From positions 4,554 through 68,553 of the forward strand of contig JAUSED010000008.1 in assembly GCA_030650425.1 (NCBI GenBank): a stretch of DNA of 64,000 bases, written 5' to 3'. Position 1 is the first letter of the stretch, and every line of letters begins with the position of its first letter. The translations under genes and the position numbers were made by a program. The notes under the pieces are model-generated. The model made no database searches and was not told where the DNA came from. It saw nothing but the letters and a program-made list of their open reading frames with translations. Positions 5,922 to 48,659 of this stretch are shown in pieces. The DNA is from Candidatus Omnitrophota bacterium. Its GTDB lineage: Bacteria > Omnitrophota > Gorgyraeia > Gygaellales > Profunditerraquicolaceae.

Positions 5922-7054
5922 AGATATACACTAAATCAATTTTACCGTTAGGCTTTAAAGCTAGCGGCATATCGAGCGGAATCAAAAAGTCAGGAAAATT
6001 AGATTTGGCTTTATTTTTTTCGGAAACTCCGGCAACCGCCGCCTGTGTATTTACAGCTAACAGTATTAAGGCAGCCCCGGTTATTTTGAGTAAAGGCTAT
6101 TTAAGGAGTAACTATTATTTTCAGGCGATCATCGCCAATAGCGGGAACGCCAATTGTTTTACCGGCAGGCAAGGCTTAAAAGATGCTCAATTAACCTCTA
6201 AATTTTTAGCTGATGCTTTAGGTTTGAAGGAAAAGGAAGTTTTGGTTGCTTCTACCGGAATCATCGCCAAGAAGTTACCGGTTGATAAGATTAAGCTGGG
6301 GATTCCCGGATTGATTAAGCAACTATCCAGAGAGGGGATTAATCAGGCGGAGAAAGCGATCATGACTACGGATACCTTCACTAAGAAGATTTCGGTAAAG
6401 TTTAGTTTGGGCCCCAAGACGGTTACTATCTGCGGCATAGCTAAAGGCGCCGGGATGATCGCGCCGAATATGGCCACTTTGTTAAGTTTTATTTTTACAG
6501 ATGCCAAGATTACCCGGCAAGCGCTTAATCAGGCTTTAAAAGTCAGCGTGCGAAATTCATTTAACTGTATAACGGTAGATGGCTGTATGAGTACTAATGA
6601 TGCGGTGATGCTTTTAGCAAATGGGGCTGCGCAGAACGCCTTGGTTAGCGGAGGGAAGAATTTGGATTTATTTATCAGGGTTTTAAGCTTAGTCTGCCTG
6701 GAGTTGGCGAAAATGGTGGTTAAGGATGCCGAAGGCGCGAGTAAATTTATCCGGATTAAGGTTAGCTCCGCCAAAAATTACAATCAGGCAAAAGCCGCAG
6801 CCTTAAGTATAGCTAACTCTAATCTTGTTAAGACAGCGATCTATGGCCAGAATCCGAATTTCGGAAGGATTGCCGCCGCTATCGGAGCAAGCGGGGCAGG
6901 GGTTGAAGAGAAGGATTTGAAGATTAAGGTTAGTTCGCTAAAGAAAAAAGAGATAGAGATTGAAGTTGAGCTTAATCAGGGTAAGGCGAATGCCGTGATT
7001 TATACTTCGGATCTTACCCCTGAATATGTTAAGATAAACGCGGAATACAATTAA
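5918..7054 (+). CDS. argJ: bifunctional glutamate N-acetyltransferase / ornithine acetyltransferase
   Basis: 378 aa; ATLLSF self-cleavage region (ATML-type) present; ATGA overlap with argC. Confidence 0.88.
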   Translation: MKIYTKSILPLGFKASGISSGIKKSGKLDLALFFSETPATAACVFTANSIKAAPVILSKGYLRSNYYFQAIIANSGNANCFTGRQGLKDAQLTSKFLADALGLKEKEVLVASTGIIAKKLPVDKIKLGIPGLIKQLSREGINQAEKAIMTTDTFTKKISVKFSLGPKTVTICGIAKGAGMIAPNMATLLSFIFTDAKITRQALNQALKVSVRNSFNCITVDGCMSTNDAVMLLANGAAQNALVSGGKNLDLFIRVLSLVCLELAKMVVKDAEGASKFIRIKVSSAKNYNQAKAAALSIANSNLVKTAIYGQNPNFGRIAAAIGASGAGVEEKDLKIKVSSLKKKEIEIEVELNQGKANAVIYTSDLTPEYVKINAEYN

Positions 7055-10144: not shown

Positions 10145-11326
10145 ATGAAAAAAGTTATCTTAGCGTATTCAGGCGGGCTTGATACATCCTGTATCATCAG
10201 ATGGCTAAAGGATAAAGGCTATGAGGTTATCTGCTTTATGGCAGATTTAGGGCAAGGTTTGGGTCAGGGTGAGAATCTGGAAGCGATTGAGTCCCGGGCC
10301 CTCGCAGCCGGAGCATCCAAAGTTTATATCAAGGATTTGCAGGATGAATTCGTGGAAGAATTTGTCTTACCCGCTCTTGCGGCCAATGCTGTTTATGAAG
10401 GAAAATACCTGTTGGCTACTGCTTTGGGCAGGCCGTTAATTGCCAAGTATCTGGTGCAGATAGCGCACAAAGAGAAGGCCACGGCAATCGCGCATGGCTG
10501 CACCGGAAAAGGAAATGATCAGGTAAGGATCGAGGTTGCGGCGGGTATTCTTGATGCAAGCCTGGAGATTATTGCTCCGGTGAGAAGCTGGGAATTCAAA
10601 TCGCGGGAAGAAGAGATAGAATATGCTAAGACACATAGCATCCCGATAGATGTTACCAAGAAAAAACCGTATAGTATTGACAGGAATATCTGGGGGATAA
10701 GTATTGAGGCGGGTGTTTTAGAGGATTTAACGCAGGAGCCTCCGGAAGACGCGTATATGATTACCAAGAGTCCGACTGCTCAGGCAAGTTATCCTAAATA
10801 TATTGAGGTTTATTTTGAAAAAGGCGTGCCGAAGAAGATAGACGGTAAAACCTGTAAATTAAAAAGCCTGATCAGCCATTTGAATGAAGTTGGGGGGTTT
10901 TATGGCGTAGGCAGGTCGGATATGCTTGAAAACAGGTTAGTCGGGATTAAGTCGAGGGAAATTTATGAGGCGCCGGCAGCCACGATTTTACATATCGCGC
11001 ATAAAGAATTAGAGGCGCTGGTTTTAGATAGGGAGTTGGCCCACTTTAAAGATATTATCAGCCTTAAATACGCGGAGTTGGTTTATAATGGACTTTGGTT
11101 TTCTCCTTTGAAAGAGGCACTGGATGCTTTTGTCAAATCTACGCAAAAACATGTAACCGGCTCGATAAGATTAAAATTGTTTAAAGGTAATTGTCTAGCG
11201 GTGGGAAGAAAATCAACACACTCGCTTTATAAAAAAGAATTGAGCACCTACGGTAAAGAAGATAAATTTGACCAGAAATTAGCCGAAGGGTTTATTAAGA
11301 TATGGGGAATGCCCTACAGAAGATGA
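10145..11326 (+). CDS. argG: argininosuccinate synthase
   Basis: ORF track starts at GTG 10139; ATG 10145 gives MKKVILAYSGGLDTS, the canonical ArgG N-terminus. Confidence 0.9.
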   Translation: MKKVILAYSGGLDTSCIIRWLKDKGYEVICFMADLGQGLGQGENLEAIESRALAAGASKVYIKDLQDEFVEEFVLPALAANAVYEGKYLLATALGRPLIAKYLVQIAHKEKATAIAHGCTGKGNDQVRIEVAAGILDASLEIIAPVRSWEFKSREEEIEYAKTHSIPIDVTKKKPYSIDRNIWGISIEAGVLEDLTQEPPEDAYMITKSPTAQASYPKYIEVYFEKGVPKKIDGKTCKLKSLISHLNEVGGFYGVGRSDMLENRLVGIKSREIYEAPAATILHIAHKELEALVLDRELAHFKDIISLKYAELVYNGLWFSPLKEALDAFVKSTQKHVTGSIRLKLFKGNCLAVGRKSTHSLYKKELSTYGKEDKFDQKLAEGFIKIWGMPYRR

Positions 11327-14406: not shown

Positions 14407-14424
14407 GGGACCGTTTCTATTTTT
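14407..14424. repeat. solo left terminal repeat GGGACCGTTTCTATTTTT of the composite-element family
   Basis: No matching right end nearby. Confidence 0.55.
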
Positions 14425-18170: not shown

Positions 18171-18213
18171 AAAATGGGGACTGTCCCCGTTTTCTGGGGA
18201 CTGTCCCCATTTT
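18171..18213. repeat. 43-bp near-perfect palindrome AAAATGGGGACTGTCCCC-GTTTTCT-GGGGACTGTCCCC-ATTTT (dapB/dapL junction)
   Basis: Two GGGGACTGTCCCC copies, each followed by a T-rich run. Confidence 0.7.
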
Positions 18214-19377: not shown

Positions 19378-19781
19378 TAATTTGTTATTTGGGGGTAGGC
19401 TCGAATTTAGGGAACAGGAGAAATAACATAGAGCAGGCTATAAGAAAGATAAACCTTTTGAAGAATACTCAAGTTTTGAAACGATCATCTTTAATCCAAA
19501 CAGATCCTCTCGGGGGTACTGCTGGCCAGCCAAAGTTCCTCAACGCTAGCCTAAAAATAAGCACAAGCCTTTCACCTTTAGCCCTGCTTAAGAATTTAAA
19601 AATAATAGAAAAAGAATTAGGAAGAAAGAAAACCGTGCGTAATGGAGCGCGAACAATCGATTTGGATATTTTACTTTATGGAGACAAAACAGTGAAGAGA
19701 AAGGGATTAATTATTCCTCACCCGCGTATGTTTAGCCGTGACTTTGTGATTAGGCCGTTGTCGGAGGTAATACAAAGGTGA
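19374..19781 (+). CDS. folK: 2-amino-4-hydroxy-6-hydroxymethyldihydropteridine pyrophosphokinase (HPPK)
   Basis: 135 aa; CYLGVGSNLG N-terminus and RTIDLDILLYG motif. Confidence 0.82.
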   Translation: MIICYLGVGSNLGNRRNNIEQAIRKINLLKNTQVLKRSSLIQTDPLGGTAGQPKFLNASLKISTSLSPLALLKNLKIIEKELGRKKTVRNGARTIDLDILLYGDKTVKRKGLIIPHPRMFSRDFVIRPLSEVIQR

Positions 19782-19812
19782 CTGTCACGTCTTTTGTGAC
19801 TGTCACCTTTGT
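19772..19812. repeat. hairpin ACAAAGGTGACTGTCACG-TCTTT-TGTGACTGTCACCTTTGT overlapping folK stop
   Basis: 16-18 bp stem; GTGACTGTCAC core also at 29108-29126 and 34370-34410. Confidence 0.65.
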
Positions 19813-19823
19813 ATGAGAATAAT

Positions 19824-21777: not shown

Positions 21778-21915
21778 GGGACCGTTTCTATTTTTTCATA
21801 GTAGGGACACTTTTCTTTAGCCTGAAGGGGACACTTTCCTTTTGAGGCTTTCATTAGAGCCCTGACGGAAAGTGTCCCCTGAACGCCCTGAACGAGGAAA
21901 AATAGAAACGGTCCC
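21778..21915. repeat. composite element: TIR GGGACCGTTTCTATTTTTT ... AAAAATAGAAACGGTCCC enclosing GTAG-GGGACACTTTTC, GGGGACACTTTCC / GGAAAGTGTCCCC
   Basis: 138 bp; between the Lys-rich mini-protein gene and GT2. Confidence 0.75.
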
Positions 21916-23902: not shown

Positions 23903-26695
23903 ATGCAGAATGAATTTATTATTATCCGCGGGGCTAAAGAGCACAATTTAAAGAATATAAACCTTAAACTTCCCCGTAATAAACTGATCGTGGTCACCGG
24001 TTTATCCGGTTCAGGTAAATCCAGCCTCGCCTTTGATACAATTTACGCCGAAGGCCAACGCAGGTTTGTGGAAAGCCTCTCTAGTTATGCCCGGCAATTC
24101 TTAGAGAAATTACAGAAGCCGGATATAGAATACATATCCGGCTTATCTCCTGCTATTGCTATTGAGCAGAGGTCTGCCGGTTCCAATCCTCGTTCCACGG
24201 TGGCAACGCAAACCGAAATCTATGATTATTTAAGGATTCTTTTTAGCCGTATTGGCAGGGTATTTTGTTACCATTGCCAAGAGCCAATCCAGAGGCAGAG
24301 CGCGCAGGAAATTATCGAAAAGATCGTCTCTCTGCCGGCAGGGATAGATATCCAGATTTTGGCTCCGCTGGCGCGGGGAAAAAAGGGCGAACATAAGGAT
24401 ATATTATCCGGAATTCAGAAATCAGGATTTACGCGGGCGCGCGTTGACGGAAAGGTTTATGAATTACCCGTAAAATTAAAATTGGCTAAATATAAAATGC
24501 ATAACCTGGAAGTAGTGGTGGACAGGCTCACTCTTAGGGAAGGGATTAAAAATCGGCTTACGGATTCAGTCGAGACCGCGCTCAAGGTTGGCAAGGGCAT
24601 AGTTATTATTAGCCGGTTGAACCCGCCAACAGATTTAGTTTTTAGCGAACAATACGCCTGCGCTAAATGCGGGGTAAATTACGCGGAGGTTGAGCCGCGT
24701 ATTTTTTCTTTTAATTCTCCTTATGGAGCTTGTCCCGAATGTAATGGCTTGGGGACAAAAATTAAATTTGATTCCGATCTGGTTATCCCCGACAGGAGTA
24801 AATCGATAAACGAAGGCGCTATTGCCCCGTGGAAAAGAGGCGGGAGGGGTTATATCCTTTACTATCGCTGGCTGATCCGGGAATTGGCCGCGCGGCTGCG
24901 CTTTAATTTAGATACCCCGTTCAATAAATTATCCAAAGAAAATCAAAACGCGATCCTTTATGGCTCGAAAGAGTTTATTGGCAATAAACCTTTTGAAGGG
25001 GTAATCCCGCATCTGGAAAGATTATTCCGCGAATCAGATAGCGATTACCTGAAAGAAGAGATAACTAAGTTTATGACCAGTTCAGCTTGTCCGCTATGTA
25101 AAGGCGCCCGGCTCAAGAAGGAGAGCCTAGCGGTGAGGATTAGCGGGAAGAACATCTGGGAAGTTAGCCGGATGTCCATTAAAGAAGCGCGCCATTTTTT
25201 TAATCATCTTGAATTAAACGCCAAAGAAAAACTGATTGCTTATCAGGCGCTCAAGGAGATCATCCAAAAGTTAAGATTCTGTGTTGATGTCGGCCTCGAC
25301 TATCTTACCTTGGATAGAAAGAGCTCGACTCTTTCCGGAGGAGAGGCGCAGAGGATCCGTTTAGCTACTCAGGTTGGTTCAGGCCTGGTCGGAGTTTTAT
25401 ATGTCTTGGATGAGCCGAGTATCGGGCTGCATCAACGGGATAATGATAAGCTGCTGGCTACACTTAAGTCATTGAGGGATTTAGGGAATACTCTGCTGGT
25501 GGTTGAGCATGACGAATCAACCATTCTCAGCGCGGATTACGTGGTGGATTTAGGCCCGGGCGCAGGCAGGCATGGAGGCGAAGTGGTTTTTTCAGGAGTA
25601 AAAGAAGAGCTGTTAAAAGACAGGCATTCTTTGACCGCTAAATATTTACGCGGGGAATTAAAAATCGATTTACCGCAAAACAGGAGAAGCTGGCGTGACA
25701 AAAAGATGTTGGAGATAAAGGGAGCCAGCGAACATAATCTTAAGCATATCGATGCCAAATTTCCTTTAGGGATTTTTATCGGGGTTACCGGCGTATCCGG
25801 TTCAGGCAAATCCACTCTCGTTGATGAAATATTATTCCGGGCGCTCTCTCAAAGGCTTTATCGCGCGAAAGAAAAGCCCGGAGCCTTTAAAAAGATTACC
25901 GGTGTAGAATTTATTGATAAAGTGATTGTGGTGGATCAGTCGCCAATAGGCCGAACTCCCCGCTCTAACCCGGCTACTTATACGGGAGTGTTTAATTATA
26001 TCCGCGATATCTTCGCCCGGCTTCCTGAGTCGCGCGGCCGGGGTTATCAACCCGGAAGGTTCTCCTTTAATGTCAAAGGCGGCCGCTGCGAGGCATGTAT
26101 GGGCGATGGGATAAAAAAGATCGAGATGCATTTTTTGCCCGATGTCTATGTTAAATGCGATATCTGCAAGGGCTTAAGGTTTAACGAGGCAACTTTAGCC
26201 ATAAAATATAAAGGCAAGTCTATCGCCGACGTACTGGAGATGACCGTAGAAGAGGCCCGGGAGGCCTTTAATAATATCCCGGCTATAAAAAATACGCTTG
26301 CTTACTTATTCGATGTTGGTTTGGGATATATCCAACTCGGCCAATCCGCGACTACCTTATCCGGAGGAGAAGCGCAGAGGATTAAGCTTTCCAGCGAATT
26401 GAGCAAGCGCGCGACCGGCAACACACTTTACATCCTTGATGAGCCGACCACGGGCTTGCATTTTGCCGATGTGGCTAAATTAATCAATGTCTTGCAGAGG
26501 TTAGTCGATAAGGGGAATACGGTGATTGTTATTGAACATAATTTAGAGGTGATTAAAAGCGCGGATTATATCATTGATTTGGGACCCGAAGGCGGGGATA
26601 AAGGTGGAGAGTTGGTTGCCTCAGGCAGCCCGGAAGAAATTATCCGGAATCAAGACTCCTACACAGGCCAGTTTCTTAAAAAAATATTGCTATGA
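23903..26695 (+). CDS. uvrA: excinuclease ABC subunit A
   Basis: 930 aa; two ABC ATPase modules (GLSGSGKSSLAFDT, GVSGSGKSTLV) and zinc-finger Cys clusters. Confidence 0.93.
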   Translation: MQNEFIIIRGAKEHNLKNINLKLPRNKLIVVTGLSGSGKSSLAFDTIYAEGQRRFVESLSSYARQFLEKLQKPDIEYISGLSPAIAIEQRSAGSNPRSTVATQTEIYDYLRILFSRIGRVFCYHCQEPIQRQSAQEIIEKIVSLPAGIDIQILAPLARGKKGEHKDILSGIQKSGFTRARVDGKVYELPVKLKLAKYKMHNLEVVVDRLTLREGIKNRLTDSVETALKVGKGIVIISRLNPPTDLVFSEQYACAKCGVNYAEVEPRIFSFNSPYGACPECNGLGTKIKFDSDLVIPDRSKSINEGAIAPWKRGGRGYILYYRWLIRELAARLRFNLDTPFNKLSKENQNAILYGSKEFIGNKPFEGVIPHLERLFRESDSDYLKEEITKFMTSSACPLCKGARLKKESLAVRISGKNIWEVSRMSIKEARHFFNHLELNAKEKLIAYQALKEIIQKLRFCVDVGLDYLTLDRKSSTLSGGEAQRIRLATQVGSGLVGVLYVLDEPSIGLHQRDNDKLLATLKSLRDLGNTLLVVEHDESTILSADYVVDLGPGAGRHGGEVVFSGVKEELLKDRHSLTAKYLRGELKIDLPQNRRSWRDKKMLEIKGASEHNLKHIDAKFPLGIFIGVTGVSGSGKSTLVDEILFRALSQRLYRAKEKPGAFKKITGVEFIDKVIVVDQSPIGRTPRSNPATYTGVFNYIRDIFARLPESRGRGYQPGRFSFNVKGGRCEACMGDGIKKIEMHFLPDVYVKCDICKGLRFNEATLAIKYKGKSIADVLEMTVEEAREAFNNIPAIKNTLAYLFDVGLGYIQLGQSATTLSGGEAQRIKLSSELSKRATGNTLYILDEPTTGLHFADVAKLINVLQRLVDKGNTVIVIEHNLEVIKSADYIIDLGPEGGDKGGELVASGSPEEIIRNQDSYTGQFLKKILL

Positions 26696-29097
26696 AAATA
26701 AGGGACCGTTTCTATTTTTCCCTGGTAGGAGACATTTTCCTTTGCGTCAGAAAGGGACATTTTCCTTTTGAAGTTCTAGTTAGAGCCCTGACGGAAAGTG
26801 TCCCTTTCTGCAAAGGTTGGAAAGTGTCCCCTACTGCGCCTAGAAACGGTCCCATTTTTTTTCTATTCGTTATTACGTTGGTATTGCTGCCTCTCTTTAG
26901 CCTATCCGCCGATACTTCAGCAGGTAAGGAAGCGGAAACATTCTTTATGGCCCAAAAGGCCTTTGAGGATGGTTTTTATGACGCGAGCCTCGGTTTTCTG
27001 GAGCGTTTCCTGAAAAATTATCCGGATTCCGCTAAGGCCATAGAAGCGAATCTGCTGGTCGGTGAATGTTATTTCCATCAGCATAAGTTTACTGCCGCTT
27101 TAGCCAAGTTCGAAGAGCTTTTAAAAGATCCTCAATCCAAAAGTATTAGAGATGTCCTTTACTATTGGATGGCTGAAGTTAATTTCAAAGGTGATAATTT
27201 TACTCAGGCTTCTTTATATTACAAGAATATTATTCAGGAATTTCCTGTTTCTGCTTACGCCCCCGCGGCGTATTATTCTTTAGGCTGGTGTTTATTTCAG
27301 GAACATAGATTTAAGGACGCGATCGGTTATTTTCAGGCCTTGATTAAGAAGTACCCTCAAGAACCCCAAGCTAAAGATGCCGGTTTTAAAATTATCGAAT
27401 GCCTGTATAACCTAAAAGATTACGCCCAGCTAAAAGAAAGAATAAATTCAAACATCGATGTCTTTCCCAAAGATGCCTTGCGCGTGGCCTACCTTTATTT
27501 TTATTTAGGCGAAGCTGATTATTATCTGGGAGATTTTGACGGGGCGCTCGCTGCCTATGCTAAAGTTTTAACGAACAGCCCCGACGCTAAAATGCAGGCG
27601 CTGACTAAACTGGATTTAGGCTGGGCATACCTTAAATTAAAACGCTACCAAGAGGCCGAAGATGTTTTCTTAGGGATAAAACAGAGTAATTTGGAGAAGG
27701 GAAGCCGGGATATCCTGTTATTGGGCAGGGCTATTGCTTCAATGGAGACTAACCGGATACATCAGGCTAAAAAACTATATGAAGAATTGTCAGTTCAGGC
27801 CAGCGACCCCTTGATTTCAATCCAAGGTTTGATCGGCAGGGCGGATGCCCTTTATAATTTGGCTGACTACGCGGAAGCCTCTAAGGCTTACCAAGAGGCA
27901 TTGGCCAAAGTAAATCTAAAAGGAGCCTATCGTCAGATAATCGATAAATTATATTATAATTTAGGCTGGTCTTTGCTGAAACAAGGGTATATCCTTGAGG
28001 CTATTACAGCGTTTCAAAGGGTGATTGATTTAAGCAGCGACGCTACATTTAGAGCAGGCGCTCTTTGTCAGATAGGAGATGCCTATCAGGAGGGGGCGGA
28101 TTATAAAAAAGCCGAAGAGGCATATAAATTATTATTGAAGGAATACCCGGGTTCTCATTATAACGATTATACATTATATCAATTGGGTTCAGTCTGTTTA
28201 AAAGAAGCAAAAATCAATGAAGCAATTTTAAACCTGATCCTTTTAGAAAAGAAATTTTCTTCATCCAAATTTTTGGATGATGCCGCGTATACCCTTGGTT
28301 TAGCTTATTTCAATAAGCAGGATTATAATTTGGCGAAGGAGACCCTTAAAAAATTTCAGGACATATTTAAGAATAGCGATTTAAGGCCAAAGGCGCTTTA
28401 TCTTTTGGGAAATTGCCTCTATAGCTTGGGAGATTATCCTTCGGCTATACAGGTTTTCAAAGAAATCCCGAGGTTTACCGGTATTGAAGCTGAATTGGAA
28501 GAGAAAGCTGAGTACGGGGTGGCGGACGCGCTTTATCAGATGGGGCAGGAGGAAGAGGCGCTTGCGCGATTTAAGGCTTTACGCTCTAAATATCCCGGCT
28601 CAAGCCTTGCCCCGGATATCCTCTGGTGGTTGGGGAGCTATTATTATCAGCATAATGAAGTGGAGCTGGCGCAGAGGTATTTTTTGTCGCTTATACAGGA
28701 TTTCCCTAAGAGTAATTTATTAGCCGACGCTTATTACGGCTTAGGCCTTACCTTAATGGATGGGCCAAAGGCACAGGAGGCTCTGGATAATTTTAGAAAG
28801 GCGCTTGCTTTAAATAATCCCGAGATTAAGCCTAAGGCAGCGGTAGCGATGGCTGAAATCGAAGAGGCGAAGGGGAACATTGATCAGGCAGCTAAAGATT
28901 ATCTGGAAGCGATTAAACTATCCGGACAGGATAATAAACTTACCGCGACAGTTCTTTTAAGGTTAGGTAGAATCTATGAAGATAAGAATAATATTCAGGA
29001 AGCCTTAAAGGTTTATTCCAAGATATTAGATATGAATATAGCGGAGTCCAAATACGCCGAAGAGCGGATTGCCAGCCTTAAGCCCAGCGTTAAATAA
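26692..29097 (+). CDS. large tetratricopeptide-repeat protein, signal/anchor after residue ~55; start uncertain
   Basis: ATG 26692 overlaps uvrA stop; first ~54 codons run through composite repeat 26702-26853; hydrophobic IFFLFVITLVLLPLFSLSA then many TPR units. Confidence 0.6.
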   Translation: MKIRDRFYFSLVGDIFLCVRKGHFPFEVLVRALTESVPFCKGWKVSPTAPRNGPIFFLFVITLVLLPLFSLSADTSAGKEAETFFMAQKAFEDGFYDASLGFLERFLKNYPDSAKAIEANLLVGECYFHQHKFTAALAKFEELLKDPQSKSIRDVLYYWMAEVNFKGDNFTQASLYYKNIIQEFPVSAYAPAAYYSLGWCLFQEHRFKDAIGYFQALIKKYPQEPQAKDAGFKIIECLYNLKDYAQLKERINSNIDVFPKDALRVAYLYFYLGEADYYLGDFDGALAAYAKVLTNSPDAKMQALTKLDLGWAYLKLKRYQEAEDVFLGIKQSNLEKGSRDILLLGRAIASMETNRIHQAKKLYEELSVQASDPLISIQGLIGRADALYNLADYAEASKAYQEALAKVNLKGAYRQIIDKLYYNLGWSLLKQGYILEAITAFQRVIDLSSDATFRAGALCQIGDAYQEGADYKKAEEAYKLLLKEYPGSHYNDYTLYQLGSVCLKEAKINEAILNLILLEKKFSSSKFLDDAAYTLGLAYFNKQDYNLAKETLKKFQDIFKNSDLRPKALYLLGNCLYSLGDYPSAIQVFKEIPRFTGIEAELEEKAEYGVADALYQMGQEEEALARFKALRSKYPGSSLAPDILWWLGSYYYQHNEVELAQRYFLSLIQDFPKSNLLADAYYGLGLTLMDGPKAQEALDNFRKALALNNPEIKPKAAVAMAEIEEAKGNIDQAAKDYLEAIKLSGQDNKLTATVLLRLGRIYEDKNNIQEALKVYSKILDMNIAESKYAEERIASLKPSVK
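26702..26853. repeat. composite element with TIR GGGACCGTTTCTATTTTT ... (CT)AGAAACGGTCCC enclosing four GGGACAxTTTCC-type cores
   Basis: Immediately after the uvrA stop; overlaps the 5' part of the TPR-protein ORF. Confidence 0.75.
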
Positions 29098-29801: not shown

Positions 29802-29880
29802 GGGACCGTTTCTATTTTTCTAAAGTAGGGGAGGTTTAAACCTCCCCTACCGTCTTAAAAATAGAAACGGTCCCTTTTTT
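29802..29880. repeat. composite element: TIR GGGACCGTTTCTATTTTT / AAAAATAGAAACGGTCCC enclosing the 26-bp perfect palindrome GTAGGGGAGGTTTAAACCTCCCCTAC; followed by TTTTTT
   Basis: Hairpin plus T-run could act as an intrinsic terminator after the PilX-like gene. Confidence 0.75.
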
Positions 29881-34361: not shown

Positions 34362-34369
34362 ATGTTCAA

Positions 34370-34424
34370 GAGAAGGTGACAGTCACGTATTTCGTGACTG
34401 TCACCTTCTCTTGCTCGCAATGAC
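34370..34424. repeat. perfect 18-bp-stem hairpin GAGAAGGTGACAGTCACG-TATTT-CGTGACTGTCACCTTCTC plus TGCTCGCAATGAC half-site, after pilQ
   Basis: pilQ/pilB intergenic. Confidence 0.7.
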
Positions 34425-37476: not shown

Positions 37477-37574
37477 GGGACCGTTTCTATTTTTCCCTAT
37501 TAGGGGACACTTTCCAACAGTCAGTAAACGCGTGTAGGAAAGTGTCCCCTGAACGAAAAAATAGAAACGGTCCC
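37477..37574. repeat. composite element (TIRs as above) enclosing ATTAG-GGGACACTTTCC ... GTAG-GAAAGTGTCCCC with ACGCGT-centred spacer
   Basis: Inner 66 bp nearly identical to 39010-39075 and 45766-45830. Confidence 0.75.
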
Positions 37575-38508: not shown

Positions 38509-38522
38509 GAAATGTAAAAAAA

Positions 38523-38581
38523 GGGGACGGTTCTATTTTTCCGGCGTTAGACTCAAGAAAAATAGAACCGTCCCCTTTTTT
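38523..38581. repeat. variant composite element GGGGACGGTTCTATTTTT ... AAAAATAGAACCGTCCCC + TTTTTT between pilin 2 and pilin 3
   Basis: Variant TIR (CGG instead of CCG) shared with the intragenic copy at 44280-44332. Confidence 0.7.
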
Positions 38582-38585
38582 CCAG

Positions 38586-38984
38586 TTGGCGCGGGGGTTT
38601 ACTCTCATCGAGCTTATCTTGGTGGTTACGGTGATTATTACGCTGGCTTTAATTGCTATTCCCAACTATAATAAGTCAAAAGACAGGGCGATAGAAAAGG
38701 AAGGTATTTCTAACGTCAGGCTGATAGCCGCGGCTGAGAGAATATACAAGATGGAAAGCAGCGCTAATGTTTATGTTGCTTGTGCTAATGCCACTACTTG
38801 TAATACAGCGCTTAATTTGAATTTGAACGCGACTAACTGGAGTTACAAAGTTGAGCTTGCTTCAGGTTCAGGGGTCGCGACCATAACCGCTACTGGATCT
38901 GCTGTCTCTGGTTGTAGCTATACCTTGACGAGCGCCAATTTTGATGCAGAACCAACAGTACCAGCAGGCTCAAGCTGCCCTTAG
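38586..38984 (+). CDS. type IV pilin; start ambiguous (TTG 38586, or ATG 38505 reading through a repeat element)
   Basis: ARG/FTLIELILVVTVIITLALIAIP; ATG 38505 overlaps the previous stop (ATGA) and would add 27 repeat-encoded residues. Confidence 0.7.
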   Translation: MARGFTLIELILVVTVIITLALIAIPNYNKSKDRAIEKEGISNVRLIAAAERIYKMESSANVYVACANATTCNTALNLNLNATNWSYKVELASGSGVATITATGSAVSGCSYTLTSANFDAEPTVPAGSSCP

Positions 38985-38991
38985 GAAAAAA

Positions 38992-39093
38992 GGGACCGTT
39001 TCTATTTTTCCCTGTTAGGGGACATTTTCCAACAGCCAGTAAACGCGTGTAGGAAAGTGTCCCCTTAGACTCTAGAAAAATAGAAACGGTCCC
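38992..39093. repeat. composite element (TIR GGGACCGTTTCTATTTTT / AAAAATAGAAACGGTCCC) with inner REP pair
   Basis: Between pilin 3 and pilin 4. Confidence 0.75.
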
Positions 39094-39112
39094 ATGTTTC
39101 CCTTAGCTTAGT

Positions 39113-40097: not shown

Positions 40098-40111
40098 GGG
40101 GGACGCTCCCC
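40098..40111. repeat. GGGGGACGCTCCCC palindrome upstream of the RAYT gene
   Basis: Inverted partner at 40839-40851. Confidence 0.6.
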
Positions 40112-40209
40112 AAGGTGCCAGCCTACTTCTAATTTCAGGTATTTTCTTAAAAAAATTTCGTTAGATTTGCTGCCTTCATGCGTCTATTAATAGTGAGGAG
40201 GTGGTAAAT

Positions 40210-40800
40210 ATGTCAAGGAGACAAAGGTTAGTTTTTGAGAGGTCATACTACCATGTTTTTACCAGGGGAAATGACCGCAAGCGGATTTTTAGAAAGGAAG
40301 CAGATTATCAGGTTTTTCTTTCGATAATCAGGAAGTACTTGGAGAAATTCCAGATCTCCATAACAAACTATTGCCTTATGCCTAATCATTTGCATTTGCT
40401 TATTTTTATTGAGACAGGTGGAGAATTGTCTAAGTTTATGAAAGCCGTCTTGCAGGTATATGCCAATTACCATAGGAAAGAATATGGCTCAACCGGGTTT
40501 CTCTATCAAAATAGGTTCAAAAGTTTATTGATCAAGGAGGAGAGTTATTTAATCGAGTGCGCTAGATACATAGAAAGAAATCCATTAAGAGCAAAATTAG
40601 TAAGCGATATTTTTGCTTGGCCATGGAGCAGCCTTTCTTACTATGCAAAAGGAATTAAAGATGGTATAATTACGAAAGTAAATCCGATTTTTGAGGCTTT
40701 GGCAGATACACCCGTGGAGAGAAGAGAAGCCTATATCAAGTATGTCTTACAGGAAAGAGCATATGAACAAATTCTTGATAAAGAATTTGACATAAAATAA
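40210..40800 (+). CDS. IS200-like Y1 transposase of the REP-associated tyrosine transposase (RAYT) type
   Basis: ATG 40210 after GAGGAGGTGG; HuH motif NHLHLL and catalytic Tyr region ARYIERNP; flanked by inverted GGGGACGCTCCCC / GGGGAGCGTCCCC at 40098-40111 and 40839-40851. Confidence 0.8.
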   Translation: MSRRQRLVFERSYYHVFTRGNDRKRIFRKEADYQVFLSIIRKYLEKFQISITNYCLMPNHLHLLIFIETGGELSKFMKAVLQVYANYHRKEYGSTGFLYQNRFKSLLIKEESYLIECARYIERNPLRAKLVSDIFAWPWSSLSYYAKGIKDGIITKVNPIFEALADTPVERREAYIKYVLQERAYEQILDKEFDIK

Positions 40801-40823: not shown

Positions 40824-40851
40824 GTAGAGTGTCCCTTTGGGGAGCGTCCCC
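40824..40851. repeat. GTAG-AGTGTCCC-TTTG-GGGAGCGTCCCC downstream of the RAYT gene
   Basis: Inverted orientation relative to 40098-40111. Confidence 0.6.
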
Positions 40852-42180: not shown

Positions 42181-43671
42181 ATGATAAGAGATAAACGTTT
42201 CGCCCTCGCAATGGCTGGGGTTAGTATTTGTATTTTTTGTTTTGGGTTTTGCCATTTATTATGCGCCGAAAATATTAAAGAACCCTGCGTTGCCGGCACA
42301 TTTTATCCCGCGAGCCCACAAGAGCTTTCTCAGATGGTTGATAACTATCTGGAAGAGGCTAACCCTGAAAAACCAAGCGGTGAAATCTTCGGCTTAATCT
42401 CTCCGCACGCCGGCTACGGTTATTCAGGCAAGGTTGCCGCCTTCGGCTATAAACTTATTAAAAATCAGCCGTATAAAACAGTAGTGATTTTGGGGACAAG
42501 CCACCATTATCCTTTTAGCGGAGCTTCAGTTTATCCCGATGGAGTATTTAAAACTCCGCTTGGCGCGATTACCATAGACGATAAATTTACCCAAAAACTG
42601 CTTAATCGGAATAAGGACGTATACTTTGCTCCGGAGGCATTTAGGGAAGAGCATAGCGTGGAAGTCCAGCTGCCATTCTTACAAAAAACACTTAATCACT
42701 TCAAGATTGTGCCGATAGTTATCGGCGATTGTTCTTTGTCGGCCTGCCAGTCGCTCGCGTCCTTGCTTAAAGAGGCGATTGGTGAGCGCAGAGATGTTTT
42801 GGTGGTTGTTTCTACCGATATGTATCATGGTTACGATTATGATGAGGCCAATAAAATCGACGTGCTTACCCTCGCCGCTATCAAAAATATGGATGCCGAA
42901 GCCCTTTATTGGGCCTTGCGCGACGAAAAGATGCAGCTCTGCGGCGGATTTGGCGTGGTGACGGCATTGATTTTAGCCAAAGGCCTGGGCCATGATCAAA
43001 TAAGCGTATTGAAACATACAAATTCCGCAGAAGTTACCGGTAACCAGAAGAAGGGGATCTGGACCGTCGGATATGCAAGTTGTGTGATTGACCAGCCAAA
43101 GGGAGAAAAGGCTATGTTAAATAAAGCTCAGAGAAAAAGATTGCTTGAAATCGCGCGCAGCGCAATCGAAACTTATCTAAAAACCGGTAAGAAGCCGCAG
43201 TTGAACGAGACCGATCCGTTGCTTTTAAAGACGATGGGGGCTTTTGTTACCCTGAAGAAACACACAGAGCTGCGTGGTTGCATTGGAAATCTCGTAGGTG
43301 AAAAGGCTTTATATTCTACGGTGAGCGATATGGCGGTTGAAGCTGCGACAGAGGATTACCGTTTTCGTTCTCACCCGGTAGAATTATCCGAACTTAAAGA
43401 TATCGAAATCGAAATTTCTGTTTTATCTCCGATGGTAAAAATTGATAATCCTGATCAAATCAAGCTTGGAACACACGGTGTTTTGATACGTAACGGCCCT
43501 AGGAGCGGAGTATTTCTTCCTCAGGTAGCCACTGAAACAGGCTGGTCAAAAGATGAATTTATGTCTAATCTGTGCATCCACAAAGCTGGCTTAGATGCAG
43601 ACGCTTGGAAAGACAAGTCTACCGAAATCTATATCTTTACTGCCGAAGTATTTTCAGAGAAAGACAAATGA
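42181..43671 (+). CDS. MEMO1-family (AmmeMemoRadiSam protein B-like) domain fused to AMMECR1 domain, with N-terminal signal/TM segment
   Basis: 496 aa; hydrophobic/Cys-rich N-terminus; MEMO motifs [13 protein letters not shown] and [10 protein letters not shown]; AMMECR1 signature [18 protein letters not shown]. Confidence 0.75.
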
Positions 43672-43688
43672 AAAATAGAAACGGTCCC
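43672..43688. repeat. solo right terminal repeat AAAAATAGAAACGGTCCC
   Basis: Immediately after the MEMO-AMMECR1 stop codon. Confidence 0.55.
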
Positions 43689-43709
43689 AAGTTTCCCCAG
43701 GTATTTAAA

Positions 43710-44495
43710 ATGCATAGATTCTTTTGTACAACTTCAGATATCACAAGTACCGAAATAATCATTAAGGATAAAGAACAGGCGCACCATATAAGAGATGTCC
43801 TCAGGCTTAAGCCGGGTAAACAGGTGGAGGTATTTGATGAAAAGGGAAATGAATATAGCTGCGAGATTCGCGAAATAAAAGATAAAATCTATCTTGAGAT
43901 TAAAAATAAAATTGCCGCCGATAAAATAAGCCAGAGAATAAAACTAACTGTAGCTTGCGCCCTGCCCAAGAAGTCTAAGCTAGACGATATCATTGATAAA
44001 CTTGTCCAGTTGGGAGTACACAGGATCATCCCGTTAAAAACAGAACGCGTAATCGTTAAGTTAGATAAATATAAAGAAGCAGGCCGGCTTGAGCGCTGGA
44101 GAAAAATCGCGCTTAGCGCCGCCAAACAAAGTAAGAGAAATGACTTACCTGTAATTGAGCCGGTTCAGGATTTACAAAAGGTTATCGCGCGATCGCAAGA
44201 ATTTGATTTAAAGCTTATACCGTATTTAGGAGGAGAGCGTAAAAATCTAAAGGATGTTTTAGATAAATTCTTAAAAAAAGGGGACGGTTCTATTTTTTCG
44301 GCATCAGACTCTAGAAAAATAGAACCGTCCCCTTGTTTTTTAATTCTTATCGGCCCGGAAGGAGATTTCTCTGAAGCAGAGGTAAAGCTAGCCGTAGCCG
44401 CGGGATTTATTCCGGTAACCCTTGGTGATTTAGTTTTACGCGTGGATACCGCGGCCATCGCGGCGGCCAGCTTCATTACTATGTACACCTCGTAG
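43710..44495 (+). CDS. rsmE: 16S rRNA (uracil1498-N3)-methyltransferase RsmE with an in-frame repeat insertion
   Basis: ATG 43710 (MHRFF...); C-terminal SPOUT motif LILIGPEGDFSEAE...LGDLVLRVDTAAIAA; residues GDGSIFSASDSRKIEPSP are encoded by a repeat element at 44280-44332. Confidence 0.8.
   Translation: MHRFFCTTSDITSTEIIIKDKEQAHHIRDVLRLKPGKQVEVFDEKGNEYSCEIREIKDKIYLEIKNKIAADKISQRIKLTVACALPKKSKLDDIIDKLVQLGVHRIIPLKTERVIVKLDKYKEAGRLERWRKIALSAAKQSKRNDLPVIEPVQDLQKVIARSQEFDLKLIPYLGGERKNLKDVLDKFLKKGDGSIFSASDSRKIEPSPCFLILIGPEGDFSEAEVKLAVAAGFIPVTLGDLVLRVDTAAIAAASFITMYTS
44280..44332. repeat. variant composite element GGGGACGGTTCTATTTTTT ... AAAAATAGAACCGTCCCC inside rsmE, in frame
   Basis: Encodes GDGSIFSASDSRKIEPSP just before the GPEGD SPOUT motif. 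Confidence 0.7.
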
Positions 44496-44515
44496 GTGTA
44501 CATAGGTTTACTTGT

Positions 44516-45733
44516 ATGCCTACCGTAAAATTTCATACCTTAGGTTGTAAAGTCAATCAATACGATACTCAAAGTATCAGAGAACGTTTTTTGGAACAGG
44601 GATTCAGGGAAATCCGCGGCCGGGCTAAGCCAGCGGATTTCTACTTGATCAATACCTGTACCGTAACAGCGGTGGCCGACCAGAAATCCCGCGGAATTAT
44701 CCGGCGCTCGATTAAGGAAAACCCCAAAGCCAAAATAATCGTTACCGGATGCCTGGTTAAACAAGATAACGCTAAATTAGCTAAGCTAAAAGGCGTGAGT
44801 CTCATTATAAGCAAAAGTTTTTTTAGCGAAGGTATAAGCGATTTCTGCTCGCATACGCGAGCTTTCTTAAAAATTCAAGATGGTTGCGATAATTTTTGCT
44901 CTTATTGTAAAGTACCTTTGGCGCGCGGCAGGTCAAGAAGCAAACACTTAAATGACCTGATCAAGGAAGCCAATCGTTTGAGCGATAAAGGCTTTAAAGA
45001 GATTGTGCTTACCGGGATCTGTTTAGGCGCCTATGGCCGGGATTTAAGCCCAAAAATAGATTTAGTCAAGGCGATAGACGCGTTGGAAAAGATCGATGGA
45101 ATCTTGAGAATCAGGTTAAGTTCGATCGAGGCAGGGGATGTTACGGAAGCCTTAATCAACAAAATAGCCAAATCGCATAAGCTCTGCCGGCATCTGCATA
45201 TTCCTATTCAAAGCGGCAATGATCAAATCTTGAAAAAAATGCGGCGCAGATACACGCGCAAATTTTATCTTAAGCTGATCAAAAAAATAAGAAATAAAAT
45301 TCCAGAGGCGGCTATTACTACGGATTGCCTGATTGGTTTTCCGGGAGAGCTCCAGAAACATTTTCGGGATACCCTAGATTTAGTGAAGCGTATCTTACCG
45401 TTAAAAGTGCATATCTTTCCTTATTCGGCAAGAGAAGGGACCACTGCCTATTTAGAGCCGGCTTTTGGCTCCTTATCAGCGAAGGATATTAAAGAGCGTA
45501 TCATCAGCCTTAAGAATGTCGCTCGTTCTTGCTCTCAAGATTATCAGAAACGTTTTCTTGGAAGAGCGCTGCCTGTTCTCTTTGAAGGCAATTCCAAAGA
45601 AAAAAAAGATTATTGGGAAGGTTATACCGATAATTATATCAAGGTTTTATTTAAGTCCCGGCGGATTTTAAAAAATAAACTTGTTTGCGTCAAGCTTGAA
45701 AGTATTATTGGAGATTATGTTATAGCTGCTTAA
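44516..45733 (+). CDS. radical SAM methylthiotransferase, MtaB/MiaB-like
   Basis: 405 aa; N-terminal MTTase Cys triad, radical SAM CDNFCSYC, C-terminal TRAM-like domain. Confidence 0.78.
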   Translation: MPTVKFHTLGCKVNQYDTQSIRERFLEQGFREIRGRAKPADFYLINTCTVTAVADQKSRGIIRRSIKENPKAKIIVTGCLVKQDNAKLAKLKGVSLIISKSFFSEGISDFCSHTRAFLKIQDGCDNFCSYCKVPLARGRSRSKHLNDLIKEANRLSDKGFKEIVLTGICLGAYGRDLSPKIDLVKAIDALEKIDGILRIRLSSIEAGDVTEALINKIAKSHKLCRHLHIPIQSGNDQILKKMRRRYTRKFYLKLIKKIRNKIPEAAITTDCLIGFPGELQKHFRDTLDLVKRILPLKVHIFPYSAREGTTAYLEPAFGSLSAKDIKERIISLKNVARSCSQDYQKRFLGRALPVLFEGNSKEKKDYWEGYTDNYIKVLFKSRRILKNKLVCVKLESIIGDYVIAA

Positions 45734-45747
45734 AACACGGAAAACAC

Positions 45748-45845
45748 GGGACCGTTTCTATTTTCCCTAGTAGGGGACACTTTCCAACAGCCAGTAAACG
45801 CGTGTAGGAAAGTGTCCCCTGAGCGAAAAAAATAGAAACGGTCCC
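45748..45845. repeat. composite element (TIRs GGGACCGTTTCTATTTT / AAAAAAATAGAAACGGTCCC) with GTAG-GGGGACACTTTCC ... GTAG-GAAAGTGTCCCC
   Basis: After the MtaB-like gene. Confidence 0.75.
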
Positions 45846-46504: not shown

Positions 46505-46571
46505 TCATTGCGGGTAATTAAGTTGTAGCGGACATTTAAATGTCCGCTACAACTTCGCCGTTCGCAATGAC
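46505..46571. repeat. GTCATTGCGGG ... GTTGTAGCGGACATTTAAATGTCCGCTACAAC ... CGTTCGCAATGAC nested palindrome
   Basis: Inner palindrome recurs (GTAGCGGACACTTAAGTGTCCGCTAC) inside the downstream gene at 48223-48252. Confidence 0.7.
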
Positions 46572-46585
46572 GATAATTTACTATA

Positions 46586-48550
46586 GTGAATAAATCTAAA
46601 TTAATTTTATTTATAGGTATCCTTTTCATTCTCGCCTTATCCTGCGCGGCCGCCTATTCCAATTCCGTACACAATCCTTTTATCTGGGACGACGATGCCT
46701 TAGTGGTTAAGAATCCGCTGCTAAGCAACTGGTCGAATCTGCCGAAGGTATTCACCAGCGACCTGTATCCCGGGGTAACTGCCGGCTCAAACTTTTATCG
46801 TCCGCTGCAGACCATATCTTATATCTGGGATTATCATTTTTGGCAGCTGGATCCGTTTGGCTACCACCTTTCCAATATCATCCTGCAGATTTTAGTTTCT
46901 TTGCTCGTTTTCTTACTTACCCGGATTATGCTCAAGGATACAAAAATCGCTTTGGCCGCGGCTCTGTTATTTGCCTTAAATCCGCTGCATACGGAAGCGG
47001 TAACCTATATTTCCGGAAGGGCGGAGATGCTTATGGGATTATTTCTACTTGCTTCCCTAATTTTATTTATTAAGGGGCATCGAGTTTTTTCTCTTTTGAG
47101 CTTTATCTGCGGCTTGCTCTCTAAGGAGTTATCCGTAGTTTTTCCGTTAGTTATTTTAGCATATTTATTTTACTATAAGAGAGAGAAGCTAAAGAAGGCA
47201 CGCTACCTCCTAAAATCAGTTTTACCATTTTTGATTATAGATTTGATCTATTTAATCTTGAGGTCCGGTTTATTGCATTTTGCGACTATCAGGCCGCCGG
47301 CATTGACTAAATACCCCTTCATTTTAAGAGTGATAGTCTTTCCTAAAGTAATGCTGACCTATCTAAAGTTATTTATCCTTCCGGTCGATTTGCATATGAG
47401 CCGGACATTGGCGCGTCCGGTGAATTTTTTAAGCCTATTCTGGAGTTGTTTTTTTCTCGGGATGATCTTTGTGTTTTGCGCCTATATTTTAAAAAACTAT
47501 AAGCAAAGAAAGACAGCCGCGTTTATGCTCTGTTGGTTCTTGATTTTTCTTCTTCCTCAATCCGGGATCCTGCCGATTAACGCCTTTATCGCCGAGCACT
47601 TTATCTATCTGTCATCGATCAGCGTTTTTATCTTACTGGCTTATTTATTGCGTAAATATTTAAGGAGGGGACTTTTTATTTTTTCCGTCATCGGGCTTGC
47701 GCTATTCTACGCTATGCTTACTTATACGCGTAACTTTGACTGGAGCGATCCTTTAGTATTTTATTCCAAAATAATCAAATATTCTCCGGATAGCTTTCAG
47801 GCGCATAACAATTTAGGGTTGCAATACGAATACCGGCATGACTTGAGGAAAGCCATCTTGGAATATAAGCGGGCATTGGAAATAGAGCCTAAGCTGATTG
47901 AGGCGCGTTCTAATCTGGCTAATGCCTATTTTAAACTGGGTAAATTTAAGGACGCGCTTTCGGAGTACGCCCAAGTAGAGAAGAGTGCTCTGCGGGAAAA
48001 GGCCGGAGAGCTGCAGAACAATATCGGTTGTATTTATGAAGTTGAAGGATTGTTGGATGAAGCCTTAGATAGGTATAGGCTCGCTTTACGTTTAGACCCT
48101 GCCTTGAACTTTACGCATTTCAATATCGCCAGGATTTACGCGGCTAAGGCTAAGTTTGATTTGGCCGCCCAAGAGGTAATAAAATCGCTTCCTGAGCTAA
48201 GTCTTACTGATTTTTATAGCAGCCGTAGCGGACACTTAAGTGTCCGCTACGGAGATAAGGATAGATATGCTCAGGTAATTAGTGCCTACGTGAAATCGTC
48301 AAAAGCATTTCAATCGGGCGTAATATTCTATAATGATTTAGGCGTGAAGTTCGCATCTGAAAACCTGTTGGAGGGAGCAATTGCCGCGTTCAAAAGGGTG
48401 ATTGAGCTGGATCCGCTTTACGCTGACGCGCATTTTAATCTGGGGCTTGCCTTTTGGAAAAAAGGCTTAAAAAAAGAGGCGATTTTTGAGTTCAAGAGAG
48501 CGCTTAAAATAAATCCTAATCACTTGAATGCCAAAGGGTTCTTAAGATAA
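46586..48550 (+). CDS. polytopic membrane protein with C-terminal TPR repeats (PMT_2/TMTC-like glycosyltransferase candidate)
   Basis: 654 aa; GTG start; ~11 TM helices in first ~400 aa then TPR units; contains in-frame 30-bp palindrome at 48223-48252. Confidence 0.65.
   Translation: MNKSKLILFIGILFILALSCAAAYSNSVHNPFIWDDDALVVKNPLLSNWSNLPKVFTSDLYPGVTAGSNFYRPLQTISYIWDYHFWQLDPFGYHLSNIILQILVSLLVFLLTRIMLKDTKIALAAALLFALNPLHTEAVTYISGRAEMLMGLFLLASLILFIKGHRVFSLLSFICGLLSKELSVVFPLVILAYLFYYKREKLKKARYLLKSVLPFLIIDLIYLILRSGLLHFATIRPPALTKYPFILRVIVFPKVMLTYLKLFILPVDLHMSRTLARPVNFLSLFWSCFFLGMIFVFCAYILKNYKQRKTAAFMLCWFLIFLLPQSGILPINAFIAEHFIYLSSISVFILLAYLLRKYLRRGLFIFSVIGLALFYAMLTYTRNFDWSDPLVFYSKIIKYSPDSFQAHNNLGLQYEYRHDLRKAILEYKRALEIEPKLIEARSNLANAYFKLGKFKDALSEYAQVEKSALREKAGELQNNIGCIYEVEGLLDEALDRYRLALRLDPALNFTHFNIARIYAAKAKFDLAAQEVIKSLPELSLTDFYSSRSGHLSVRYGDKDRYAQVISAYVKSSKAFQSGVIFYNDLGVKFASENLLEGAIAAFKRVIELDPLYADAHFNLGLAFWKKGLKKEAIFEFKRALKINPNHLNAKGFLR
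48223..48252. repeat. perfect 30-bp palindrome CCGTAGCGGACACTTAAGTGTCCGCTACGG inside the TPR-membrane gene, in frame
   Basis: Encodes SRSGHLSVRYG. Confidence 0.7.
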
Positions 48551-48659
48551 TCCACCCACGAGATGTAGGGGCACGGCATGCCGCGCCCCTACATCGCAGT
48601 TGTACATGGGTAACAAAAAGTAATTGCTAAAAGCAGCCTTTATGTTAGAATAAATTAAC

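Follow-up and report, generated by a model that had tools for sequence, protein, structure and literature searches.

The rsmE locus and its in-frame palindrome

We analysed a window of 64,000 nucleotides (nt) from a Candidatus Omnitrophota bacterium (contig JAUSED010000008.1), the whole stretch to which the positions below refer unless another locus is named. It contains rsmE, a gene of the 16S rRNA m3U1498 methyltransferase family whose coding sequence includes a short palindromic repeat, translated in frame just before the GPEG motif of the protein. The features concerned are:

43710..44495, + strand, rsmE coding sequence, 261 amino acids (aa), 16S rRNA m3U1498 methyltransferase family, intact and bearing the insert (TIGR00046, PF20260 + PF04452, RsmE fold)
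44280-44297, 44298-44314 and 44315-44332, + strand, left arm, loop and right arm of the core palindromic element (exact inverted repeat, hairpin fold, coil in the structural model)
44273..44339, + strand, extended palindrome, to which the A-run (KK codons) and the TTGTTTTTT run also belong (25-nt arms, fold; resembles an intrinsic terminator)

The core element (44280-44332, 53 nt) reads GGGGACGGTTCTATTTTT-TCGGCATCAGACTCTAG-AAAAATAGAACCGTCCCC, with 18-nt arms around a 17-nt loop, and its two arms are exact reverse complements with no mismatch. When the adjoining A-run and TTGTTTTTT run are counted, the palindrome grows to 25-nt arms (44273-44339) that are 96% complementary. Folded as RNA, the hairpin reaches -34.7 kcal/mol, while shuffled sequence gives -12.4 +/- 2.6 (z = -8.6). 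The arm pattern, allowing up to 3 mismatches, matches 16 times in the window where 0.12 matches were expected, and none of 100 shuffles reached 16. A preliminary description of this DNA had reported a repeat copy lying in frame inside rsmE before GPEG, and we confirmed it: the frame is unbroken and the motifs of the host are kept. The element is translated as GDGSIFSASDSRKIEPSP (residues 191-208) and is followed by CFLILIGPEGDFS; the residues before it are LDKFLKK and not KKFLKK, as first described. Read forward, this copy has stop codons in two of its three frames, and rsmE uses exactly the third. The predicted tryptic peptides of the insert are GDGSIFSASDSR or IEPSPCFLILIGPEGDFSEAEVK. No Rfam family matched the element at the gathering threshold, and the sub-threshold matches (miRNA precursors, plastid 3'UTR hairpins) were rejected as generic long hairpins.

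The enclosing open reading frame (ORF) spans 43572-44495, with ATG 43710 as the likely start. By its profile matches the host gene encodes an RsmE-family methyltransferase of the SPOUT class: the protein scores 166 bits against TIGR00046 (cutoff 41) and carries an N-terminal PUA_4 domain (PF20260) and the SPOUT domain Methyltrans_RNA (PF04452). NCBI has a protein of 100% identity from a metagenome-assembled genome (MAG) of Candidatus Omnitrophota. Its AlphaFold model (pLDDT 86.7) matches the solved RsmE structures 5o95/1vhk/4e8b in Foldseek with E values of 3e-22 and about 1e-22. The conserved C-terminal motifs (GPEGG/D, LRxET/D) are intact, and rsmE is not decaying, because all 44 invariant columns of the orthologue alignment are kept.

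It is very improbable that the insert is an artefact, whether a misassembly of the MAG at a repeat or a mark of an rsmE pseudogene in decay. The exact protein comes from one contig and repeats are classic misassembly points; however, the 53-nt repeat is shorter than typical reads, colinear rsmE sequence lies on both flanks with the frame kept, and the invariant columns are intact. Furthermore, the same RsmE site has comparable in-frame palindromes in independent assemblies (ENA, Logan, JGI and NCBI), and one insert-bearing orthologue, P0004, is present on 6 contigs.

In the AlphaFold model, the insert is a coil of low confidence (pLDDT 48-69) between helix 180-189 and strand 209-214. Structure prediction had been proposed to see whether the insert is a surface loop; the coil between helix and strand agrees with this, and the surface position is what we infer from it. 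The GPEG motif follows the C-terminal end of strand 209-214, and the insert sits at the N-terminal end of the same strand. In the usual alpha/beta topology, the N-terminal strand ends lie on the sheet face away from the cofactor site. On the model, the insert would therefore be found where the sheet faces away from the S-adenosylmethionine (SAM) site, and the added peptide would be a harmless, tolerated surface loop. In this sense, the earlier statement that the element lies next to the cofactor-binding knot is right along the sequence but probably wrong in space.

The same RsmE loop in other lineages

Of 110 homologues that could be scored, 65 have 25 residues from DLKLIP to GPEG, which is the modal linker, and the window protein has 43, so that the insertion, first put at about 18 aa, is exactly +18. 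The closest orthologues, 73-74% identical at the protein level, are without the window's element: P0003, the closest one free of an insert, reads DRF-VPAD-IIVLIGPEG, and P0002, also among the closest, has a different palindrome at the site. Orthologues might have shown the same residues as native sequence, but they do not, most of them being without an insert. The repeat statistics together with the orthologue alignment rule out a native loop or a chance palindrome. A HMMER alignment that pairs GDGSIFSA with GEISAFSA of Bacillus subtilis YqeU was judged a coincidence, as it needs a compensating 12-residue gap just upstream.

The orthologous DNA was fetched protein by protein; an RsmE-profile search of genome contigs gave mostly distant phyla, with L005 as the only close relative among the matches listed. 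The site holds the following palindromes:

L001, L085 and L087: GGGACGGTTCTATT-N15-AATAGAACCGTCCC
L086 and L088: decayed versions of GGGACGGTTCTATT-N15-AATAGAACCGTCCC, folding no better than shuffles (z +0.98 and -0.65, respectively)
L005: a GGGGACGTTTCTACTTTT-type element with an extra right arm, matching a family dispersed in the same genome (9 arms in 20.8 kb)
L211: a perfect palindrome, GGGACAGCGACCATTTTTT...AAAAAATGGTCGCTGTCCC
L090: an unrelated palindrome, TTCCAAACCGGGTTTGGAA, tandemly duplicated

Four arm types are DNA-verified at the orthologous RsmE site, some of them fresh and some decayed, and this repeated filling of one loop by several palindrome families is the unexpected part of our results. 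In L090, the closest insert-bearing orthologue, the unrelated tandem duplicate of CCAAACCGGGTTTGGAAT occupies positions 2246-2283 of the locus, at the rsmE site, and is translated as FQTGFGIPNRVWNL. Also, P0008 has a putative GGTGACAGTGATTTTTT-type palindrome, seen in the protein only (DNA unverified).

In a rough neighbour-joining tree (no bootstrap), filled and empty states of the site are interleaved. The loci L001 and L003 are near-isogenic, with 543/546 and 161/162 nt shared in the rsmE flanks (99.5%) and 98.4% identity over the 3 kb upstream; within rsmE they differ by a 63-nt palindrome-bearing linker versus 27 nt of unrelated linker, which constitutes a patch replacement. All the nearest relatives of this pair in the tree have the short linker. 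L089 is 'empty', yet GTCCCT is still found at its junction and may be what is left of a right arm. From these comparisons, the history of the site includes gains, losses, replacements and decay. A look for the empty site in other strains had been suggested as a check: P0003 is empty, and the near-isogenic pair shows replacement instead of a clean filled/empty difference. Stem changes in L088 that seemed compensatory were rejected as evidence of a selected structure, the fold being no better than shuffles (z = -0.65).

A possible but doubtful explanation of this pattern is that a palindrome entered the site once, in an ancestor, was inherited and often deleted, and was overwritten by conversion or recombination from the current subfamily of each genome; the window copy would then be a converted old insert. 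In agreement, the 'DGSIANG..NRTVP' inserts of P0004, P0005, P0006, P0007, P0009, P0010, P0019 and P0039 have a loop that is homologous among them and occur here and there in the window's clade, and decayed versions exist. The possible right-arm remnant of L089, the patch replacement between L001 and L003, and the match of the L005 rsmE copy to the subfamily of its own genome point the same way. However, the nearest relatives of P0004 all have the short linker, so at least one recent gain is needed, and the arms of L090 and L211 are unrelated to the GGGACGG type, which leaves little homology for conversion. The tree on which this distribution is read is, as said, rough and carries no bootstrap support.

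Dispersed copies and a candidate transposase

The arms of the rsmE element recur in the window as a short twin and as longer composite forms, and a transposase gene of the type associated with repetitive extragenic palindromes (REPs) lies 3.5 kb upstream of rsmE:

38517..38581 (core 38523-38575), + strand, twin of the short element, with identical arms and 61/67 aligned positions shared (91%) (alignment)
38984..39101, + strand, composite 'major' form, with outer arms GGGACCGTTTCTATTTTT around an inner GTAG hairpin of ~49 nt
21778-21915, 26702-26810, 29802-29874, 37477-37574 and 45748-45845, further composite copies
14407-14424, single arm of the composite family
43671..43688, - strand, solitary major-form arm, AAAAATAGAAACGGTCCC (arm matches)
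40201..40800, + strand, Y1 (HUH) transposase gene of the REP-associated tyrosine transposase (RAYT) type (profile matches, motifs)
40099..40111, - strand, left inverted repeat of the RAYT gene, GGGGGACGCTCCCC (sequence)
40839..40851, + strand, right inverted repeat of the RAYT gene, GGGGAGCGTCCCC, preceded by GTAGAGTGTCCC (sequence)

The element had been called a repeat, and the twin core at 38523-38575, the composite relatives and at least 124 metagenomic copies bear this out. The window event, or a homogenisation, was recent, because the arms of the rsmE copy are identical to those of the twin while the nearest orthologues are only 73-74% identical; this copy may be a fresh insertion or may have overwritten an older insert. 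No target-site duplication was found at either short copy in the window (rsmE and twin), the flanks being AAAAAAA / TT(G)TTTT, that is, inverted and not direct.

The twin may be translated as well. It shares its frame with a pseudopilin gene if ATG 38505 is the start; this ATG overlaps the TGA of the pseudopilin gene that lies upstream, and an N_methyl motif follows downstream of the twin. Read from ATG 38505, the leader is MRNVKK-GDGSIFPALDSRKIEPSP-FFQLARG|FTLIE, a prepilin leader of 31 aa where orthologues have MKKRG|AFTLIE. With TTG 38586 as the start instead, the twin would lie in a 78-nt intergenic gap.

About eight longer composite copies are found in the window; they are intergenic and mostly placed directly after stop codons. 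The differences between the composite arm GGGACCGTTTCTATTTTT and the short arm are mirrored on both arms, and in the alignment a composite minus its ~49-nt inner hairpin gives the short form. Classical REPs carry a conserved 5' GTAG and are extragenic by definition. In the family described here, GTAG is limited to the inner hairpins of the composites and is absent from the short form, including the whole of 44273-44339; it is also present beside the RAYT gene. The solitary arm at 43671..43688 adjoins the stop codon of a Memo/AMMECR1 gene, 22 nt upstream of the rsmE start. An 801-aa ORF for a tetratricopeptide repeat (TPR) protein, whose ATG overlaps the upstream stop codon, reads through the composite at 26702-26810 (region 26692-26810); either its true start lies downstream or this is another translated copy. 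The readable asymmetric loops of the composites (CAGTAAACGCG) all have one orientation, and nearly all the long ORFs of the window are on the + strand. The shared orientation of the loops may reflect a strand bias of the mobilising mechanism.

A metagenome scan with the pattern GGGACGGTTCTATT-N(0-30)-AATAGAACCGTCCC gave, among the matches listed, 120 stretches with 124 elements. The great majority of these copies (114/124, ~92%) lie outside long ORFs, and the remaining 10/124 lie deep inside them. Most have A/T-rich complementary flanks, and their loops and outer flanks vary yet stay complementary. The element is, then, a short imperfect palindrome present in many copies that are mainly extragenic.

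For six of the 10 copies inside ORFs the host was verified as a real gene, since Pfam domains flank the insert on either side or run across it. The verified hosts are PriA (two orthologues, same site), PurH, a PurS-PurL fusion, a GH94 glycosyl hydrolase and a Fer4/FlpD protein. Regarding the frame, 6 of the 10 read GDGSI... as in the window, 5 of these 6 end in ...IEPSP, and 3 have the same 18-aa form. In the PriA proteins of L124 and L198, the 18-aa form (GDGSIFLASDLRKIEPSP and GDGSIFLPSDSVKIEPSP) has one and the same place, immediately behind the 3'-DNA-binding domain, which makes it a second case, besides RsmE, of a site shared within a gene. In the Fer4/FlpD protein of L173 (residues ~340-395), three left-arm peptides, RQGDGSIA-RQGDGS-RQGDGSIV..., are followed by three right-arm ones, ...IEPSP-CLADEPSP-GLEPSP, a succession of nested partial copies that suggests insertion of an element within an element, or expansion of the palindrome, inside the gene. 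The dispersed repeat of the L005 genome adds 21-24 residues to a DsbD_2 protein and gives a MiaB-like gene its last codons and its stop, and L006 has a short copy inside a MiaB-like gene. That gene of L006 (~11050-11110) shows a second insertion, of 19 residues (...KEKERIVDLLKGLSPKGTVPVTAK...), relative to four orthologues, and its KGTVP motif hints at another translated repeat arm. Protein-level searches were uninformative, because an 18-aa motif is too small for the size of the databases: a search of proteins with a 44-aa concatenated peptide gave 9 word-sharing candidates and no hits, and when 30 aa of the window were searched exhaustively by HMMER, the only matches were the protein of the query itself and P0121, an ORF of low complexity and unrelated.

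The window transposase matches PF01797 with 63 bits and the NCBIfam model REP_Tyr_transpos with 74 bits (cutoff 80), versus 27 bits for IS200, and HUH (NHLHL) and YIERNP motifs are visible in its translation. The RAYT unit with its inverted GGGGAGCGTCCCC repeats is found in the window and in L001 (5966-6718) at the same place, immediately following the same pseudopilin gene; L003 does not have it, and the counterpart spot there is at ~6566-6806. That spot holds a GGGACAGCGACCATT arm, of the family found in the rsmE of L211, and a tRNA. In L118, members of the GGGGACGGTTCTATT family lie on both sides of a RAYT homologue (34% identity) that has HUH and YIELNPVRAG motifs: a GGGGACGGTTCTATTTT arm precedes its ATG by ~45 nt, and a full hairpin of this family comes shortly downstream of the gene. 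By its sequence, L118 has the defining REP-RAYT arrangement, at one locus of a repeat-dense contig.

Origin of the insert and comparison with known repeats

The evidence makes it likely that the rsmE element is a REP-like selfish palindrome of Omnitrophota, tolerated in a permissive loop and probably mobilised by a RAYT. The family is probably moved as single-stranded hairpins by a HUH tyrosine transposase of the RAYT type, and copies may also pass between rsmE alleles by short-patch recombination. One permissive loop would collect copies because selection presumably removes those that fall in other positions or frames of the small rsmE gene. The host would retain an active RsmE, since the peptide would be a tolerated surface loop. 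Once resident, a copy would either be kept similar to the other copies of its genome or decay into ordinary loop sequence; the neutral decay is seen in L086 and L088, where the hairpins are lost and the sequences persist as a protein loop.

Several points weigh against this reading. A transposition event, a clean filled/empty pair and a target-site duplication are all without observation, the near-isogenic pair being a replacement. The short form is without the GTAG head of classical REPs. The window RAYT falls just under the NCBIfam cutoff (74 vs 80 bits) and is flanked by a different palindrome, not by the rsmE element, and the RAYT association of L118 is a single locus in a repeat-dense contig. 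Also, only one MAG contig is known to encode the protein of the window.

The likeness of many copies to terminators raises the alternative that the insert is a functional cis-element, namely a translation-sensitive terminator or attenuator that would tune the 3' part of rsmE and, downstream, the MiaB-like gene, or else a site for processing by RNase III/E or for the binding of a protein. We consider it improbable. The stem is very stable, with a GC-rich base (GGGGACGG/CCGUCCCC) and then the U-rich UUGUUUUUU; most intergenic copies have A-run/T-run flanks like those of bidirectional terminators and lie just after stop codons; and the arm differences among subfamilies are mirrored on both arms. 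Such mirrored changes, however, are equally expected of a mobile hairpin. A cis-acting role is disfavoured because the orthologues L086 and L088 have lost the hairpin at the same site (z about 0) while the gene persists, and most orthologues have no insert. In addition, Rfam gave no match above threshold, and the terminator scan gave no call for the element, although the scanner is limited to loops of <=8 nt and the loop of the element is longer.

A tentative extension of the mobile-palindrome reading is that the RsmE helix-to-strand loop is a true insertion hot spot, where hairpins moved by a RAYT land by preference in the apex of a resident hairpin and nest within it or replace it. We regard this as possible, not as probable. 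It would account for the four or more DNA-verified arm types at one codon position, for the composites with differing inner hairpins and for the nested Fer4/FlpD copies. If it were true, REP/RAYT systems would be a continuing source of new protein loops in the housekeeping genes of a candidate phylum that lives free.

REP and REPIN systems with their RAYTs were reportedly described by Nunvar et al. in 2010, Bertels & Rainey in 2011 and Ton-Hoang et al. in 2012. The Omnitrophota family resembles them in its short hairpin repeats, with many copies that are mainly extragenic and placed after stop codons, in its nested or doublet hairpins, and in having a single-copy Y1/HUH gene between inverted repeats (of this family in L118, of a sister palindrome in the window and L001). 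It differs from them in that the short form in rsmE is without GTAG and is translated, and in that the window RAYT is not flanked by the exact element. With MITEs (miniature transposable elements with inverted repeats) the element shares the small, non-autonomous hairpin repeats with occasional in-frame copies, some of which resemble rho-independent terminators. Nevertheless, MITEs have terminal inverted repeats derived from DDE-type insertion sequences and target-site duplications, whereas here the flanks are an inverted A-run and T-run. Small repeats with sporadic in-frame fusions to genes include ERIC, BOX and Correia, and SPRITE is terminator-like (PMC10969869).

Rickettsia palindromic elements (RPEs) are palindromic repeats found between genes and in frame inside genes of Rickettsia (Ogata et al. 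2000 Science 290:347, via PMC10969869). The preliminary description had called an in-frame mobile palindrome of this kind unusual; this can be maintained only in part, as in-frame palindromes are known from Rickettsia (PMC10969869) and the same loop is filled in many orthologues of the clade. As RPEs, the Omnitrophota element is dispersed, both intergenic and in frame in unrelated housekeeping genes, translated, compatible with the fold of its hosts and without a clear target-site duplication; in-frame, translated and fold-compatible copies were found in rsmE, PriA, PurH, PurS-PurL, GH94, Fer4/FlpD, DsbD_2 and MiaB-like genes. In contrast, RPEs are about 100-150 bp long and occur only in Rickettsia, which are obligate intracellular Alphaproteobacteria, and no transposase is known for them, while the in-gene form described here is 53-67 bp long and belongs to uncultured Omnitrophota. 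Further differences are that ~5-8% of the sampled copies lie in genes, that a RAYT is associated in at least one locus and that several palindrome families occupy one loop. The element behaves as RPEs do and has the looks of a REP or REPIN, but to RPEs it is a functional counterpart only; membership in RPE families is implausible in view of phylum and length. A literature search for palindromic repeats in Omnitrophota found nothing relevant, an absence that is no proof of their being unpublished.

To our knowledge, in-frame selfish DNA in genes is a textbook oddity almost entirely tied to Rickettsia. Our findings point to this process in Omnitrophota too, a phylum that is uncultured and for the most part free-living, together with a candidate RAYT, which RPEs are without. 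Furthermore, a single loop of a small, structurally understood enzyme shows fresh, decayed, replaced and absent states, which brings within reach of direct tests how hairpins of the REP type choose their targets and how junk DNA becomes ordinary protein sequence.

The palindromes also bear on annotation, as they create mirror-image spurious ORFs and ambiguous start codons of which annotators of MAGs should beware. Across rsmE, a spurious 123-aa ORF on the minus strand (44165-44536) reads ...GDGSIFLESDAEKIEPSP..., because the symmetry of the palindrome leaves the mirror frame open too. Another hairpin, with a 12-bp stem (CTATGTACACCTCGTAGGTGTACATAG), spans the rsmE stop codon at 44479-44505 and ends 11 nt before the start of the MiaB-like gene at 44516; the terminator scan called it terminator-like. 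Additionally, other perfect or near-perfect palindromes lie between genes at 46520-46555, 48223-48252, 48562-48595, 18171-18213, 19770-19814 and 34367-34413. Several of them contain GTAG (GTAGCGGACA..., GTAGGGGCAC...), and the genome holds several REP-like families.

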